From the NCBI GenBank assembly GCA_965204375.1, contig OZ241986.1, forward strand, positions 3,520,001 through 3,584,000: DNA of 64,000 nucleotides, written 5' to 3'. The notes beneath the pieces were generated by a model, which worked only from the letters and a program-made list of their open reading frames with translations, did no database searches and was not told the DNA's origin. Positions within the stretch are counted from its first letter, which is position 1, and each line of letters begins with the position of its first letter. Both the position numbers and the translations under genes were made by a program. Shown here piece by piece: positions 386 to 5,908 of the stretch. The stretch is from Candidatus Latescibacterota bacterium (GTDB taxonomy: Bacteria > Latescibacterota > UBA2968).

Positions 386-790
386 GTGAAGGTCTTCTTC
401 GAATGGCCGTACGAGGAATCGTGGAATATTACCCAGGCTCACCACTACCTCAGCCGATTCTGTGAGTTTGATCCCGAGCATTGCCTCCTCGCCCTCGACA
501 AAAATAAGGTAATTGGCGCGATGTTCGGATACTGCTATCCCTGGCAAGACCGAATCAACTACTACATGCAAGAACTTTTTGTCGATCCCGATCAAAGGCG
601 GTCAGGCCACGGACGAAGACTGGTGCGTCATCTGCTCGACAAACTCGGAGAATCGGACGTATCCATGTCCCTGATCGCCAATGAGGCAACGCCAGCAGCC
701 GCATTCTACGAGGAACTTGGACTGCGGCAGCACAGATACTACAAATTTTATTGCGGTACCATAAAACCGGGGGATTATGTAGTTGAGTAG
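386..790 (+). CDS. GNAT family N-acetyltransferase; C-terminus altered by IS insertion
   Basis: ELFVDPDQRRSGHGRRL (acetyl-CoA motif A) and AAAFYEELG. The last codons lie inside the IS left end. The start is uncertain and the N-terminus looks short. Confidence 0.8.
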   Translation: MKVFFEWPYEESWNITQAHHYLSRFCEFDPEHCLLALDKNKVIGAMFGYCYPWQDRINYYMQELFVDPDQRRSGHGRRLVRHLLDKLGESDVSMSLIANEATPAAAFYEELGLRQHRYYKFYCGTIKPGDYVVE

Positions 791-792
791 CA
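770..792 (+). repeat. Left terminal inverted repeat of the IS1595 element
   Basis: Reverse complement of 4142-4164 with one mismatch; directly preceded by TAAAACCG. Confidence 0.93.
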
Positions 793-822
793 TGATCGCT
801 CCTCCTTTCAGTTTCAATTTAG

Positions 823-851
823 AAAATATGAATATTCATTGACATTGTAAA
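823..851 (-). promoter_or_regulatory. Predicted outward-facing sigma70 promoter with palindromic operator-like site
   Basis: Minus strand TTTACA-17 bp-TATTTT; the spacer contains the perfect palindrome ATGAATATTCAT (828-839). Confidence 0.45.
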
Positions 852-867
852 AGGGATTCGATAGATT
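839..867 (+). promoter_or_regulatory. Predicted sigma70 promoter for the 976-1431 passenger gene
   Basis: TTGACA (839-844)-17 bp-TAGATT (862-867). Confidence 0.6.
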
Positions 868-975
868 ATCAGCATCTGTCAAATTACTGATATTTTTGTC
901 TTACATTACGAATATACGTTTTAGCCCTGACGGACAAACTCACGGAAGCCCTGACGGCATCCAAAGGAGAGTTCC

Positions 976-1431
976 ATGGATATACAGAGACTCATTAAAG
1001 AAGAGTACAAGGAGCATGAACCTTTCTATTGCAAGGAACACGCTTTGGCAATATCGAAAAGGAACGTACTCGAAAGAATTGTGCGCGAGCGTTCTGGAGA
1101 GCCTGAGGTAGTCCCCTCGATCTGGGATAACAAGCGGGCACCTACTCCGATTGTGGTGCCAGGGGGATCTGGTGGCGAAGCCATAGGTGTTGCTTTAGTC
1201 GCTTTGCTCATCGGCGGCGGCTATGCGCTATACAAATGGCTATCCAGTGACGATGCCCAAACGTCGTCCAATGACACTTCTGGCAACTCTGGTGCCCCTT
1301 CTGTGAATGAGCAACTCAACCGCATCGAGGAAAGGCTCGACGGACTCGACGCGAAACACGCCGACATTGAAAGGGCGCAAGATAGAGCGAAAGCCATCCT
1401 GGACCGCCTTAAAGTTCCCGAAGCGGCTTAA
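976..1431 (+). CDS. Hypothetical single-pass membrane protein with C-terminal coiled coil (IS passenger)
   Basis: SD AAAGGAG before ATG; hydrophobic AIGVALVALLIGGGYALYKWL; heptad-like LNRIEERLDGLDAKHADIERAQDRAKAIL. Confidence 0.7.
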   Translation: MDIQRLIKEEYKEHEPFYCKEHALAISKRNVLERIVRERSGEPEVVPSIWDNKRAPTPIVVPGGSGGEAIGVALVALLIGGGYALYKWLSSDDAQTSSNDTSGNSGAPSVNEQLNRIEERLDGLDAKHADIERAQDRAKAILDRLKVPEAA

Positions 1432-1443
1432 CCATATTACATG

Positions 1444-1530
1444 AAAAAAGCCCTGGCGGTATCGAGTCAAACTGCTGATAGCATTAGAGCATTCAAGTTT
1501 GTCCGTCAGGGCCATGAGAGCTAATTTCCT
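1444..1530 (-). ncRNA. Predicted structured antisense sRNA convergent on the 976-1431 gene
   Basis: Minus strand GCCCTGACGG...CCGCCAGGGC closing stem followed by TTTTTT, with inner CAAACT/AGTTTG stem. Complementary to leader sites 879-892, 923-933 and 946-961. The 5' end is uncertain. Confidence 0.45.
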
Positions 1531-1600
1531 GTCATAATTTTATGCCAGAAAAAGGGAGATTTCGCAACTAAAATACTGCCCACTTGGGCAGTAAAAACAC

Positions 1601-1629
1601 TTGCATTTCAGAGGTTACGATGTTATCTT
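1601..1629 (+). promoter_or_regulatory. Predicted sigma70 promoter of the transposase leader
   Basis: TTGCAT-17 bp-TATCTT; preceded by inverted repeat TACTGCCCA/TGGGCAGTA (1574-1593) and overlapped by GGTTACGAT/ATCGTAACC (1613-1646). Confidence 0.5.
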
Positions 1630-1666
1630 TATATCAAATCGTAACCCCTTATTTTTTGGGTAGATA

Positions 1667-1750
1667 TAAAAAGGGCGAGACCTATGTTCGCGCATAGGTC
1701 TCGCCCGACTGCCCTCCATCAAGCTAAACAAAGTGACATTGCCTTAGCTT
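1667..1750 (-). ncRNA. Predicted antisense RNA (about 85 nt) to the transposase leader
   Basis: Minus-strand promoter TTGCAA-17 bp-TATTTT (1785-1757); hairpin 1719-1752; terminator stem 1673-1706 followed by a T run on the minus strand. Confidence 0.5.
1668..1706 (-). terminator. Rho-independent terminator
   Basis: Perfect 14-bp stem GGGCGAGACCTATG/CATAGGTCTCGCCC, 6-nt loop, T tract on the minus strand. Confidence 0.7.
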
Positions 1751-1804
1751 GAACAAAAAATAACGGGTAGCCACACAAATTGCAAGAGAAAAGTGAGGTG
1801 TGCT

Positions 1805-2770
1805 ATGGCTACCAATGCCCCTGGCATGCATTTCCGTGAGGGCATGTCTCTGATTCAGTTGTTCCAGATGTTTCCTGATGATGAGGCTGCCGAGAAGTGG
1901 TTTGTTCACACGCGCTGGCCGGATGGGATGGCCTGTCCGCACTGTGGGAGTACGAATGTCAACGAAAAGGCCACACACCCTACGATGTCCTTCAGATGCC
2001 GAGAATGTGTCAAATACTTCTCGCCAAAGACGGGCACCATCATGGCACGATCTAAGCTCGGATACCAGATATGGCTTATTGCCATCTATCTCTACACCAC
2101 ACACCTTAAAGGCGTGTCCTCTATGAAGCTACACAGAGACCTCGACATCACACAGAGAACCGCCTGGTTCTTACTCCATCGCATCAGGCACGCCATGTCT
2201 GAGGAGGAACAGACCCTCTTTGAGGGCACAGTAGAAGTCGATGAGACGTATATCGGTGGGAAGGAAGGGAACAAACACGCCAAAGACAAACTGCGTACTG
2301 GCAGAGGCACAGCAGGCAAAGTCCCTGTGGCCGGTGTCAAGAACAGAGACACAAAGCAAGTGCAGGCAATCGTGATCGACGAGGCCGATGAGGACACGTT
2401 GAAAGTGTTTATTGAGGATACTGTGGCGCGTGGGGCCACTGTCTATACGGACGGCTCACACGTCTATAACAGTCTGGAGGGGTATGAACACGAAAAGGTG
2501 ATTCACTCGCGGGGCGAATACGTCCGGGGGGATGTGTGGACAAACGGCATCGAATCATTCTGGTCAGGGATCAAACGCGGCATTATGGGCGTGTACCACA
2601 AGATCAGCCCAAAGCACCTGTGGCGATATGTCACAGAGTTTGTGGCACGCCAGAACATGCGGATGCGAGACACCATCGACCAGATGACGCTCATTGTGCG
2701 GAGGTTCGAGGGAAAACGGCTAAGGTATGCAGACTTGACGGCACTGTATCCATCGCTGGAATTACGTTGA
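1805..2770 (+). CDS. IS1595-family transposase (Zn ribbon + ISXO2-like DDE domain)
   Basis: RWPDG..CPHCGS..CRECVK zinc ribbon; VEVDETYIGG, VYTDG, TNGIESFWS, YHKISPKHL..Y..EF motifs; SD GAGGTG. Confidence 0.95.
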   Translation: MATNAPGMHFREGMSLIQLFQMFPDDEAAEKWFVHTRWPDGMACPHCGSTNVNEKATHPTMSFRCRECVKYFSPKTGTIMARSKLGYQIWLIAIYLYTTHLKGVSSMKLHRDLDITQRTAWFLLHRIRHAMSEEEQTLFEGTVEVDETYIGGKEGNKHAKDKLRTGRGTAGKVPVAGVKNRDTKQVQAIVIDEADEDTLKVFIEDTVARGATVYTDGSHVYNSLEGYEHEKVIHSRGEYVRGDVWTNGIESFWSGIKRGIMGVYHKISPKHLWRYVTEFVARQNMRMRDTIDQMTLIVRRFEGKRLRYADLTALYPSLELR

Positions 2771-2795
2771 CAGGCACGGCGATATGATGTATAAC
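2767..2795 (+). promoter_or_regulatory. Predicted sigma70 promoter for the small passenger ORFs
   Basis: TTGACA (2767-2772)-17 bp-TATAAC (2790-2795), overlapping the transposase stop codon. Confidence 0.6.
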
Positions 2796-2809
2796 TAAAC
2801 TGTGCAGAA

Positions 2810-2882
2810 CGCACAAATGGAAATGACTCACCCCGTAGAAGGTGAGCCATTCCAAACACTAAAATTCATCGCCGACAGATGA
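2810..2882 (-). ncRNA. Predicted antisense RNA (about 70 nt) to the leader of the small ORFs
   Basis: Minus-strand promoter TTGACA-17 bp-TAAGTT (2917-2889); GC-rich hairpin GGAAATGACTCACC/GGTGAGCCATTCC near the predicted 3' end. Confidence 0.45.
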
Positions 2883-2936
2883 TGCCTAAACTTACATCAC
2901 TTGGGGGCATCTGTCAAGGCGGAAAGGAAGCATGCT

Positions 2937-3110
2937 ATGCCCTTCAATAAAGAAGAAGCCTTGCAGGAGATGGAGGCAGAGCGGGTAGCATTAGAGGTCT
3001 ATCTGCGCCGGAACGGAGAGACGCCACAATCCATCCAACGGCGCATACCGAAGGCGCCACCACCCATAGAATCAAAGCCGATCATGCCGACAGTGCCACC
3101 ACCCATTTGA
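2937..3110 (+). CDS. Hypothetical 57-aa protein with Pro-rich tail (IS passenger)
   Basis: SD-like AAGGAAG 6 nt before ATG; downstream of the predicted promoter. No family recognised. Confidence 0.5.
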   Translation: MPFNKEEALQEMEAERVALEVYLRRNGETPQSIQRRIPKAPPPIESKPIMPTVPPPI

Positions 3111-3123
3111 ACGGAGGGTAGTC

Positions 3124-3333
3124 ATGAATCAGCCAGTACTTATTGAACCTGAGAGTGTAGTAGTGGACCGTAGCCCTATGCCAATTCCTCGTCCGGTGAC
3201 ACTTGCTATTCATTATCGCACCTCAGATGGTGCATTGTCTGTCATAGTGTTCGGATTGACCGTACCACAGGCAGATAAATTGGAGTCGGATTTACGTCTA
3301 AAGAGGGGAGAAGCCTCAACATCAGGAATATGA
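3124..3333 (+). CDS. Hypothetical 69-aa protein (IS passenger)
   Basis: SD GGAGG before ATG; 13 bp after the previous ORF. Confidence 0.5.
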   Translation: MNQPVLIEPESVVVDRSPMPIPRPVTLAIHYRTSDGALSVIVFGLTVPQADKLESDLRLKRGEASTSGI

Positions 3334-3486
3334 AGCATAAACATACATCCATCTGGTATCTCTAACGACGCCTGAAACTTCGCCATTTCTTCCCAGTTTA
3401 TTTCGTAATCGCTGGCTTTTTGCTGTTCTGAAGTAGCCATCTCTCTCACCTCCTTCTGAGATTAAAATATCAGGTTGGAAAATCAC

Positions 3487-4104
3487 ATGCAAATATACAC
3501 CCCAGGTGGATTGACAATCAAGTTACATGCAGACCGGGTTGAGCGTGTATTAAAACCTGTCCGTCATCTCATAAACATCGAAGATGCTTTCGTTGATATT
3601 CAATTATGGGCAAACTTCCCCGGTAATATGTTGTCAATTTTAGCTATTATTACTGCTCTAACCACACAGTCATGGACTTCGGTATTGATTGTGGGTGTTC
3701 TTGGCTTTGTTTTGGTCGATCTCTACCAACAATTTTTTTACTCACGTTTTCTCAAGGTGTTATTTCCTTTTGTATTAGGGGCGTTCTACGTCACACTGCC
3801 AGCCTCATTGATCACCATTTATATTTTATATCAAGAAGGTGCTATTATAGCTGGAATCACTCAGTTTGTTATGGTTCTTATGGACATTACAGGCATTGCC
3901 GATTTGATTTTATTTTTTTCTACGCCTATTAGGTTTTCTGTCCGATGCCTCTTTGGCAAAAGAGCAAAGGAAGGTGCGATTGAAGAGGCCTTTATTAAAA
4001 TCTTGAATCACAAAGCAAGACAAGTTGGCGTAATTCTCGATTGGCAAAGCTACAATCGCCGAGAAACTGATACCTCTTTCTTTTTTGGGGATCATGTGAG
4101 ATAA
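3487..4104 (+). CDS. Hypothetical multi-pass membrane protein (IS passenger)
   Basis: AT-rich ORF of about 205 aa with several hydrophobic segments; ends 37 bp before the right terminal repeat. Confidence 0.7.
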   Translation: MQIYTPGGLTIKLHADRVERVLKPVRHLINIEDAFVDIQLWANFPGNMLSILAIITALTTQSWTSVLIVGVLGFVLVDLYQQFFYSRFLKVLFPFVLGAFYVTLPASLITIYILYQEGAIIAGITQFVMVLMDITGIADLILFFSTPIRFSVRCLFGKRAKEGAIEEAFIKILNHKARQVGVILDWQSYNRRETDTSFFFGDHVR

Positions 4105-4141
4105 TGCTGCCAGCACACGCATCACTTGCCTCCTTTCGCTC

Positions 4142-4164
4142 TGCTACTCAGCTACATAATCCCC
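4142..4164 (-). repeat. Right terminal inverted repeat of the IS1595 element
   Basis: 22/23 match to the left repeat; directly followed by TAAAACCG. Confidence 0.93.
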
Positions 4165-4199
4165 TAAAACCGGACGTGGAATAGTCTATCTTACAAGCC

Positions 4200-4676
4200 A
4201 TGCAAATCGAGAATATCAAGCACCACCTCGACGCCATTGACACGCTATCACAGGCGCAATTTGAACTGTGGGGACCTCTTACAGGTCGAAACACACTAAA
4301 AGAATATCGCGAGTTACTCCACTTCGCCGCCGAATCCGAGAGCCTGCCAACCACGCTCGTTGCCGTAGAAAACGCAACCGTCCTCGGCTCTGTAAACGTA
4401 CTCGAAAACGATCTGCTACTCCGTCCTGATATTGCGCCCTGGTTAGCGCAATTATTTGTATTTCCAAATTTCCGACGCCGGGGTGCAGGTGCATTGCTAA
4501 TTGCGGGTGCGATTGCAGAGGCGCGAAAGCTGAACAGACCAATACTCTATCTGTACACGTCTGGAACGCTACCGAGTTATTACGAAAAACTCGGATGGTC
4601 TCGCATGGGAGAGATCGCGTACCTGGGCAAGCGCAGAGTGATAATGGCCTACGAAATCGATTTAAAAATAAAATAG
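4200..4676 (+). CDS. GNAT family N-acetyltransferase
   Basis: PWLAQLFVFPNFRRRGAGALL, LYLYT and YYEKLGW motifs. Confidence 0.9.
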   Translation: MQIENIKHHLDAIDTLSQAQFELWGPLTGRNTLKEYRELLHFAAESESLPTTLVAVENATVLGSVNVLENDLLLRPDIAPWLAQLFVFPNFRRRGAGALLIAGAIAEARKLNRPILYLYTSGTLPSYYEKLGWSRMGEIAYLGKRRVIMAYEIDLKIK

Positions 4677-5563: not shown

Positions 5564-5908
5564 ATGACCATCATACGATACCCGGGAAAAGCGGTTGGTC
5601 GCAGTGAATCCGTCGAACACAATGGCATCCTCTATACAGCCGTCATTGCGCCGGACTTATCTGCAGACTTCAAGAGCCAGACCCGGCAAGCGCTCGAACA
5701 GTTAGACACAAACCTCGCTGAGGCAGAAACCGATAGAACCTGTCTCCTCTCCGTCACAATCTATATCACAGATATGTCAAAGAAACCCATCCTGAACGAA
5801 ATTTGGGACGCCTGGATCGGTCCCTACAATTGGCCCCAGCGCGCCTGTATAGAAGCCAGGCTCGAAGGAAATACACTTGTAGAGATAGTCGCAATTGCTG
5901 CGAAATAA
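5564..5908 (+). CDS. RidA/YjgF family protein
   Basis: QTRQALEQLD, LLSVTIYITDM, NEIWDAW, PQRACIEARL, LVEIVAIAA. Confidence 0.9.
   Translation: MTIIRYPGKAVGRSESVEHNGILYTAVIAPDLSADFKSQTRQALEQLDTNLAEAETDRTCLLSVTIYITDMSKKPILNEIWDAWIGPYNWPQRACIEARLEGNTLVEIVAIAAK

Follow-up and report, generated by a model that had tools for sequence, protein, structure and literature searches.

Does a transposon of the IS1595 family that carries passenger genes also carry RNA-level control over those genes and over its own transposase? The question is raised by E1, an element at positions 770-4164 of the window analyzed here, a 64,000-nucleotide (nt) stretch of contig OZ241986.1 from Candidatus Latescibacterota bacterium (assembly GCA_965204375.1, positions 3,520,001 to 3,584,000 of the forward strand; G000:C1:3520001-3584000). 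An earlier reading of the letters alone, called here the sequence-only reading, had described E1 as a modular, RNA-regulated mini-transposon in which three forward promoters, each followed by a hairpin-rich leader, are opposed by three short antisense transcripts. Our comparison of E1 with its relatives suggests that, in this insertion sequence (IS) with passenger genes, three stacked layers of control probably act on the transposase, accompanied by a second antisense unit at the cargo gene orfB. The modular description thereby gained comparative support for the transposase and orfB units but not for the first unit, which is a rearranged copy of another module, X.

E1 is a complete IS1595-family element that has moved with its cargo

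E1 is 3395 bp long. Its terminal inverted repeats are 23 nt in length, begin with GG (GGGGATTATG...) and are 96% complementary (22/23), and the same 8-bp target duplication, TAAAACCG, flanks both ends. A repeat finder thus recovered the repeats that had been described around a 3.4-kb unit, and the transposase open reading frame (ORF), at 966 nt, accounts for 28.5% of the element, within the earlier estimate of under 30%. A second copy of E1 is present at G000 4398607-4402001, with 100% identity across all 3395 bp, orfA to orfE included. The identity ends exactly at the element termini, and this copy has an 8-bp duplication of its own, CCCAAAAT. We also examined seven loci of the same genus that hold the left flank of E1. 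In four of them (G003, G008, G005 and G010) the left and right flanks are contiguous without the element, and the remaining three matched above threshold for the left flank only. At the empty site of G010 the target is present once, as TAAAAACG. The identical second copy and the empty sites establish that E1 is a complete IS1595 element with passenger genes, as had been proposed. It is intact and was recently mobile as one unit, cargo included. E1 has inserted into the final codons of a GNAT acetyltransferase gene (386-790), whose C-terminal residues are altered; a second GNAT gene (4200-4676) is found on the other side of E1.

The transposase ORF is the only long ORF of E1 with a family assignment. 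It matches PF12762 (DDE_Tnp_IS1595; 1.5e-38, profile positions 3-153 of 153), the zinc ribbon PF12760 (6.1e-09, residues 24-69) and NF033547 (6.5e-58). The family definition, as excerpted, gives an N-terminal zinc ribbon to all IS1595 groups except IS1016 (PMC8101967), and excerpts of a second source describe passenger-carrying members of the family (tIS), among them tISCpe8 and MTnSag1/tISSag10 (PMC5704250). In these portions of the two sources, the tIS share with E1 a transposase with a zinc ribbon, repeats of ~23-25 bp starting with GG, an 8-bp duplication and passengers. The non-transposition genes of E1 lie within the inverted repeats and travel with the element, being identical in both copies. 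E1 is therefore an IS1595-family tIS, a known category, and is ordinary for its class. It differs from the described tIS in that its cargo is not one resistance gene but a set of four or five orphan ORFs lying to either side of the transposase. We take the end consensus of the ISNwi1 group in ISfinder to be ggnnatTAT, which the E1 ends (GGGGATTAT) fit by eye only. The closest annotated plasmid-borne IS1595 transposases are at most 44% identical to that of E1, which therefore represents a new IS.

Relatives of the transposase gene at 71-78% DNA identity were detected in 13 of the 20 same-genus genomes searched. It was possible to delimit E4 and E5 in the E1 genome, G000 (3773 and 2423 bp, respectively), along with elements in G009, G020 and G006 that span 2.0-5.0 kb. 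In addition, G002 contains a decayed relative of the whole of E1 that retains parts of the leader, transposase and right end as well as of orfA and orfB. One relative in G020 (G020a) contains an IS256-like gene, and the element E3 is without a transposase. The search of the genome and its relatives for copies, which the sequence-only reading had proposed as a check, thus yielded the second copy of E1 and delimited relatives that carry nearly all different cargo.

The transposase leader is conserved and covaries across nine elements

We aligned the 240-330 nt upstream of the transposase ATG from nine leaders in seven genomes (E1, E4 and E5 in G000, and one each in G016, G020, G008, G002, G009 and G006). 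The identical second copy of E1, the 5'-truncated G020b and the gene-less fragments G010 and G000 646482 were left out of the alignment. When the leader by itself served as a DNA query against 31 genomes of the family, no further copies were returned, and all matches fell within the genus. In IS1595 elements that are more distant (41-68% identity over the first 80 residues), the leaders are short, the inverted repeat lying ~80-100 nt from the ATG, and the leader module was not evident when judged by eye, with no formal test.

The alignment revealed a hairpin, D, in 9/9 leaders. On the plus strand it is preceded by an A-run and never followed by a T-run; read on the minus strand, every leader has a stem-loop here with a T-rich tail behind it. 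In the minus-strand alignment 90/90 cells of the inner 10 pairs are paired, and 7 of the 14 pairs are changed on both sides. There are 9 G.U cells on the minus strand and no A.C cells, and in G020 and G008 the stem is perfect on the minus strand only. This strand specificity of the G.U pairs and of the G020 and G008 stems is the best evidence for an RNA made from the minus strand. Upstream of hairpin D on that strand, a promoter of the form TTGnnn-17-TAT[T/A/C]TT, with a spacer of exactly 17 nt, occupies the homologous place in 8/9 leaders, the exception being the decayed G002 copy, which has TATCTC. The predicted antisense RNA would start at ~1750, end at 1667-1672 and fold with -38 kcal/mol (z = -5.7).

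On the sense strand, a promoter TTG[C/A]nT-17-TATCTT is found at the homologous place in 8/9 leaders (not in G008), with a TG extension in six of those eight. It is convergent with the antisense promoter, ~125 bp away. The promoter overlaps a second hairpin, helix B, whose loop contains the -10 box and whose 5' arm lies within the promoter spacer. Helix B is strong in 6/9 leaders (-12 to -22 kcal/mol); 80.4% of its 107 cells are paired, compared with 31-48% in slid controls, and 7/12 pairs are changed on both sides. The plus strand has 13 G.U cells versus 7 A.C, and the U-run that follows is kept in 9/9 leaders. The earlier suggestion that aligned leaders be checked for covariation was thus borne out for hairpin D and helix B, as 0/500 shuffles reached the covariation score of either one, although shuffles overstate significance for sequences as related as these.

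The leader as a whole (1636-1810) is predicted to fold with -67.5 kcal/mol (z = -7.7). It is closed by the long-range helix C, for which the duplex has -11 to -16 kcal/mol in 9/9 leaders. The start codon is also structured: the predicted local folds of all nine leaders pair two or more nt of the AUG, and two subclades use different partner sequences. In the window no Rfam family was matched at gathering level; in region 500-4500 the only match with E <= 1 was rpfG, at 20.6 bits versus a threshold of 75.9.

A predicted three-layer control of the transposase

These features suggest a model with three layers, in which we infer transcription, strand of action and regulatory effect from conservation and covariation. 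In the first layer, helix B would act as a terminator that stops transcripts entering from orfA or from outside the element. As its 5' arm lies within the promoter, with the 3' arm and U-run immediately past the transcription start, the full hairpin should form only in transcripts arriving from upstream, and the transcripts of the transposase promoter itself, made without the 5' arm, would escape termination. In the second layer, the leader fold would bury the AUG in a hairpin. In the third, the convergent promoter would make an antisense RNA of ~84 nt (1750->1667), fully complementary to the central part of the 5' untranslated region (UTR) and terminated at the conserved minus-strand terminator, hairpin D. 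This RNA would most likely lower transposase output, by duplex-triggered decay, leader refolding and/or promoter collision. The sequence-only reading had predicted the RNA and its 17-nt-spaced promoter from E1, and both now have the support of conservation and covariation, the promoter recurring in 8/9 leaders.

A second, candidate sense/antisense unit precedes orfB

The leader of orfB contains a unit with the same layout as that of the transposase and no sequence similarity to it. A predicted antisense RNA would run from ~2882 through a hairpin at 2850-2823 to a U-rich tract at ~2805 (z = -2.7). Copies of 2867-2928 with 88-91% identity occur in G016 and G014. The G016 copy lies directly after a related transposase and before a different, Cys-rich ORF of 59 amino acids, and the G014 copy (L070 ~5700-5860) lies in an 8.5-kb locus without a transposase. 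G002 has a diverged form of the cassette before its orfB homologue. A minus-strand promoter TTGACA-17-TA[A/T]nnT is kept by 4/4 loci, which precede three different ORFs; ~30 nt past the predicted antisense start, each has a GC-rich hairpin, its sequence unrelated to the others, and after it a U-rich tract. The sense promoter also has counterparts: TTGACA-17-TAAAAT in G016, TTGACA-17-TAACGT in G002 and TTGGCA-18-TATATT in G014. The four loci thus lend support to the antisense unit and 17-nt-spaced promoter that had been read at 2882->~2805. We place the chance that this orfB unit is genuine just short of even.

Antisense RNAs of ~70-80 nt that act against a long structured leader from face-to-face promoters are known from hok/sok and CopA/CopT. 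The E1 units resemble such type I toxin-antitoxin and plasmid countertranscript systems in forming a portable cassette before small ORFs, among them a 24-amino-acid ORF in G014. They differ in that the orfB product (57 amino acids) is hydrophilic and Pro-rich, unlike a membrane toxin, and is not a small hydrophobic peptide. As a separate observation, the 24-amino-acid ORF that follows the G014 cassette (MSKKATRWLRLAIHFARLLVNLFG) is basic and hydrophobic and looks like a type I toxin.

Regulatory antisense RNAs or insulating hairpins

Several observations weigh against the model of antisense control. The nine leaders are few and related. Helix B is degenerate in G016, G020 and G008 (4 Watson-Crick pairs of 12), and in E1 it is stabler on the minus strand (-15.7 versus -12.2 kcal/mol). 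The predicted antisense RNA, starting at ~1750, overlaps neither the Shine-Dalgarno (SD) sequence at 1793-1798 nor the AUG, so direct ribosome blocking of the IS10 type is unlikely. For the orfB unit, the antisense U-tracts are interrupted and the loci number four. Lastly, a promoter scan that uses the sigma-70 consensus, which may not be the consensus of this phylum, called 9 sites in the region versus 5.4 +/- 2.6 expected and missed both antisense promoters and two of the three sense promoters. Of the three forward promoters in the sequence-only reading, that of orfA was called, and those of the transposase and orfB fail the rule of the scan but are conserved in relatives.

The failure of the scan to call the antisense promoters is also what would be expected if the hairpins were bidirectional insulators and mRNA-folding elements, with no regulatory antisense RNA, and if the apparent antisense promoters were chance AT-rich matches or by-products of helix C. 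IS ends often carry terminators against impinging transcription, as excerpts of a study of IS200 describe (PMC4513863). Moreover, the antisense -10 lies within the 3' arm of helix C, itself conserved, so that its conservation could reflect sense-strand structure instead. This explanation does not readily account for a TTG that 8/9 leaders, with divergent spacers, keep exactly 17 nt upstream of TATxTT, and which on the sense strand falls in a hairpin loop without evident sense-strand role. Nor would it predict a dedicated minus-strand terminator 45-80 nt downstream, with strand-specific G.U pairs and no minus-strand gene upstream, or the repetition of this layout with unrelated sequence at orfB. 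We consider the insulator explanation unlikely, and we think it likely that the antisense RNA to the transposase leader is real and repressive. Overall, the comparisons argue strongly for RNA regulation of the transposase, moderately for that of orfB and not for that of orfA.

The first predicted pair is a split copy of a unit, X

The first sense/antisense pair, at orfA, is best read as no such pair: comparison with other loci identifies it as a split copy of a promoter-hairpin-terminator unit that we call X. This unit is ~125 nt long (about 120-143) and consists of a promoter (TTGACA-17-TAAATT / TACATT / TAGATT), a 5' segment of ~55 nt, a long hairpin (GCCCTGACGG...CCGTCAGGGC) whose inner stem is CAAACT/AGTTTG, and finally a T-run. 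X is contiguous beside E4's right end, where it reads inward, as well as in a neighbouring second copy and in G012 and G016 (L007:1458-1613 and 1952-2129, minus; L023:701-858; L071:5871-6025, minus). A covariance model derived from these four full copies located X at 13 places in 6/132 genomes of the class, all in one genus. X is often inside IS1595-type elements, and two of the matches are within related elements of G016 and G006. In an alignment of 11 matches, 95.4% of cells are paired and 6/20 pairs are changed on both sides, in a model-fitted alignment that leans towards structure. X had no Rfam match.

The opening ~20 nt of X show complementarity to the inner portion, on the 3' side, of the loop of the hairpin. 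This long-range duplex has -25 to -31 kcal/mol (z -6.8 to -8.5) in the four full copies and holds in the G006 copy; the helix shows compensatory changes between E4 and the neighbouring copy and has a quite different sequence in G016. Because only 2 nt separate the complementary segment from the 3' arm of the terminator, the two structures are probably mutually exclusive.

In E1 the pieces of X are at 839-957 and 1444-1512. The forward piece is cut in the loop and fused to orfA's ribosome-binding site, and the X promoter is therefore predicted to drive orfA. The second piece, complete with terminator hairpin and T-run, is inverted behind orfA. Of the three leaders described as hairpin-rich, those of the transposase and orfB are indeed structured, but that of orfA is no more structured than chance (z = -0.9).

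Could the orfA pair nevertheless be functional, so that orfA, the transposase and orfB each have a counter-transcript, including one at 1530->1444? The X-type hairpin with its T-run at 1512->1444 is a bona fide minus-strand terminator, a TTGCGA-19-TAAAAT motif upstream of it is conserved by eye in E1, G002 and G009, and an RNA made from it would be complementary to the orfA 3' UTR and, through the inherited X helix, to the 5' UTR at 879-893. Common descent from a single X unit accounts for that last complementarity. The promoter spacer is 19 nt; the fold is weak on the minus strand (z = -1.7, versus -3.0 on the plus strand); and the inverted copy in E1 is alone among 11 in having a non-pair, an A.C mismatch, at a covarying outer-stem position on its own strand. 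In addition, G002 and G009 keep the promoter-like motif without the hairpin, and the opposing leader, as noted above, is unstructured. The antisense RNA 1530->1444 of the sequence-only reading is accordingly doubtful, and it is rather improbable that all three pairs function.

The position of orfA can be traced by comparison with E5 and G006, in which a functional left inverted repeat (IRL) is directly before the leader. A decayed inner IRL in E1, at 1554-1593, aligns with these and marks where the core IS ancestrally ended on the left, with the orfA block and its good IRL outside it. A hairpin within this relic (1574-1593) is terminator-like on the minus strand, and is so only in E1. The arrangement fits a history in which the left cargo was captured through fusion to another element's end, after which the inner end was lost.

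A relic IRL inside the element, together with the split and partly inverted X, is also what a decaying composite of at least two IS fragments would leave, its modules being junk from nested insertions with no function beyond transposition. Relatives that are nested or decayed (the IS256-like gene in G020a, the decayed G002 element and the loss of the transposase from E3) are in keeping with this idea. Two identical copies with intact ORFs and ends point instead to a working unit, and compensatory changes are seen in leaders across elements whose transposase genes share only 71-78% DNA identity. We judge the composite explanation very improbable and retain the model of layered transposase control.

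Relation to other IS control systems

Control of IS200 includes a terminator at the left end, a hairpin that sequesters the SD sequence, and art200, an antisense small RNA of ~90 nt to the 5' UTR; IS10 also uses a convergent antisense RNA against its transposase (excerpts of PMC4513863). E1 resembles IS200, as described in those excerpts, in its candidate terminator near the left end (helix B, degenerate in 3/9 leaders), its initiation-occluding hairpin, with the AUG paired in 9/9 predicted folds, and its predicted cis-encoded antisense RNA to the 5' UTR. It differs in having a DDE rather than an HUH transposase and a terminator that overlaps the promoter itself. Its antisense RNA would also stop ~43 nt short of the SD sequence, whereas art200 covers the first three codons (PMC4513863). 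In IS10, RNA-OUT covers the ribosome-binding site and blocks 30S binding, with an overlap of 35 nt; the predicted E1 RNA would pair with the interior of the 5' UTR only, over ~84 nt. The sequence-only reading had considered the layout new for IS1595. Neither tIS nor control of the IS200/IS10 type is new, but the excerpted literature that was searched, with supplements and ISfinder outside its scope, describes neither an antisense RNA nor a structured leader combined with an antisense unit in the IS1595 family. The predicted control logic would therefore be familiar, and its novelty would lie in its occurrence in this family.

If the model holds, the IS1595 family, here in a barely studied uncultivated phylum, would join the few IS families with antisense control, and an IS200-like three-layer brake of terminator, start-site hairpin and antisense RNA would have arisen by convergent evolution. 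A promoter nested in its own read-through terminator would be a compact design for an insulator. More tentatively, portable RNA control cassettes, comprising the face-to-face antisense units and X, may have been shuffled between the IS1595 elements of the genus and placed ahead of transposase and unrelated cargo alike. That the orfB-type cassette and X both turn up in front of different genes suggests an exchange among transposons of regulatory RNA modules as well as of genes; newly captured genes would then arrive with ready-made RNA-level regulation.

Cargo genes and feature map

The features of E1 are listed in Table 1.

Table 1. Features of E1 and its borders (window positions; regulatory features are predictions)
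Feature	Position	Strand	Basis
Left target-site duplication, 8 bp, TAAAACCG	762-769	.	Direct reading; flank comparison
IRL, GGGGATTATGTAGTTGAGTAGCA	770-792	+	Repeat finder (22/23 nt match); genome-wide inverted-repeat scan
X promoter predicted to drive orfA, TTGACA-17-TAGATT	839-867	+	Sole hit of consensus scan among three sense promoters
orfA 5' UTR (5' part of X; homology to ~957, in loop of X terminator hairpin)	874-975	+	Comparison with X
orfA, 151 amino acids, orphan; one predicted membrane helix and C-terminal coiled coil	976-1431	+	ORF list; profile and protein searches
Complete X-type terminator hairpin and T-run, inverted behind orfA	1444-1512	-	57 bits to X model
Relic of ancestral left end (decayed inner IRL)	1554-1593	+	Alignment with IRL of E5 and G006
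Transposase sense promoter, TTGCAT-17-TG-T-TATCTT, 8/12	1601-1629	+	Leader alignment
Helix B and U-run TTATTTTT, predicted intrinsic terminator	1610-1657 (arms 1610-1621/1638-1649)	+	Covariation
Helix C, long-range, closes leader domain	1644-1658/1754-1768	+	Repeat finder (93%); minimum free energy fold
Predicted antisense RNA to transposase 5' UTR, ~84 nt	1667-1750	-	Hairpin D 1706-1673; U-run 1672-1667
Antisense promoter, TTGCAA-17-TATTTT	1785-1780, 1762-1757 (span 1757-1785)	-	Leader alignment
Predicted start-codon-sequestering hairpin, GGTAGCCA (1766-1773) / TGGCTACC (1806-1813)	1766-1813	+	Minimum free energy fold
IS1595-family transposase, 321 amino acids; zinc ribbon and DDE domain	1805-2770	+	Pfam and NCBIfam profiles
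orfB sense promoter, TTGACA-17-TATAAC, last T missing	2767-2795	+	Counterparts in relatives
Structured orfB leader	2802-2936	+	Fold, z = -4.3
Candidate orfB antisense unit; promoter TTGACA (2917-2912)-17-TAAGTT (2894-2889)	2805-2917	-	Four loci
orfB, 57 amino acids, orphan; hydrophilic, Pro-rich tail	2937-3110	+	ORF list; profile searches
orfC, 69 amino acids, orphan	3124-3333	+	ORF list; G016 homologue
orfD, doubtful gene, overlaps orfC	3213-3440	-	Strong SD AAGGAGGTG before ATG 3440
orfE, 205-amino-acid multi-pass membrane protein, orphan	3487-4104	+	ORF list; searches; predicted helices
Right inverted repeat	4142-4164	-	Repeat finder; genome-wide inverted-repeat scan
Right target-site duplication, 8 bp, TAAAACCG, exact repeat	4165-4172	.	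Direct reading

In Pfam, NCBIfam, PADLOC and PHROGs, no cargo protein of E1 reached the threshold of any family, sub-threshold matches being of the order of XhlA at 19.6 bits (cut-off 34.7) and holin-like PHROGs at E ~0.01. Among 5.8e9 proteins, orfA had six matches including itself and orfE had four, one of which was its own cluster at 99%; all are unnamed. Invariant motifs are conserved in the relatives of orfA. The ESM Atlas gave no lead for the cargo proteins, an orfE query found no match in 131 other genomes of the class, and a metagenome scan with an orfE alignment returned nothing useful. AlphaFold models of the cargo are poor (mean predicted local distance difference test scores of 36.6 and 53.9), with the helices of orfE visible. 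For orfB there is a homologue at 77% DNA identity in the decayed G002 element. The orfC homologue in G016 is intact; the DNA homology extends from the ribosome-binding site to just past the stop, 15/69 residues differ, and substitutions by codon position number 9/9/10.

We rejected orfD as a conserved gene and count it as doubtful because, despite a very good SD sequence, it is broken or absent in the G016 homologue. A minus-strand promoter-like TTGATT-18-TATATT at 3492-3521, within the start of orfE, points towards orfD, and a transcript from it would be antisense to the orfE start region. Also rejected was an ORF of 126 amino acids antisense to the 5' part of the transposase gene (1724-2104): no antisense ORF of at least 90 amino acids is listed at that place in E4 or E5, and the predicted antisense transcription start lies downstream of this ORF.

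Further relatives of the transposase and its ends

A metagenome scan with the transposase returned nothing useful. Within the set L046, L047, L049 and L050, full-length relatives at 57-60% identity are present in Caldilineaceae and Phototrophicaceae records, and archaeal matches are fragments, one in a Cenarchaeum metagenome-assembled genome (MAG; 54%, residues 2-130) and one in a Nitrosopumilaceae MAG (21 residues). Spread of the transposase across phyla is thus possible, and perhaps across domains too.

The cargo ORFs of E3 have no Pfam family. An element of 1965 bp at G000:C1:4045388-4047352 (L005/L011) has the same inverted repeats as E1, its right end matching the E1 IRL over 23/23 nt. 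Its transposase is reduced to a remnant of 56 amino acids; the opposite strand carries an ORF of 369 amino acids with an NPPF motif and one of 176 amino acids, neither with a Pfam family, and its flanks are A-runs, which obscure any target duplication. It may be a non-autonomous cargo element that the E1 transposase can mobilize. A 39-bp stretch in G002 (L067 4783-4821) joins a 25-nt left end identical to that of E1 to the last ~14 nt of a right end, with nothing between the ends and no clear duplication, and looks like an internally deleted remnant. Lastly, E4 (G000:C1:1314625-1319341) contains a pair of right-end repeats, at element positions 3761 and 4705 and thus 944 bp apart; an X unit lies before each of them, and the arrangement suggests a tandem or nested remnant.

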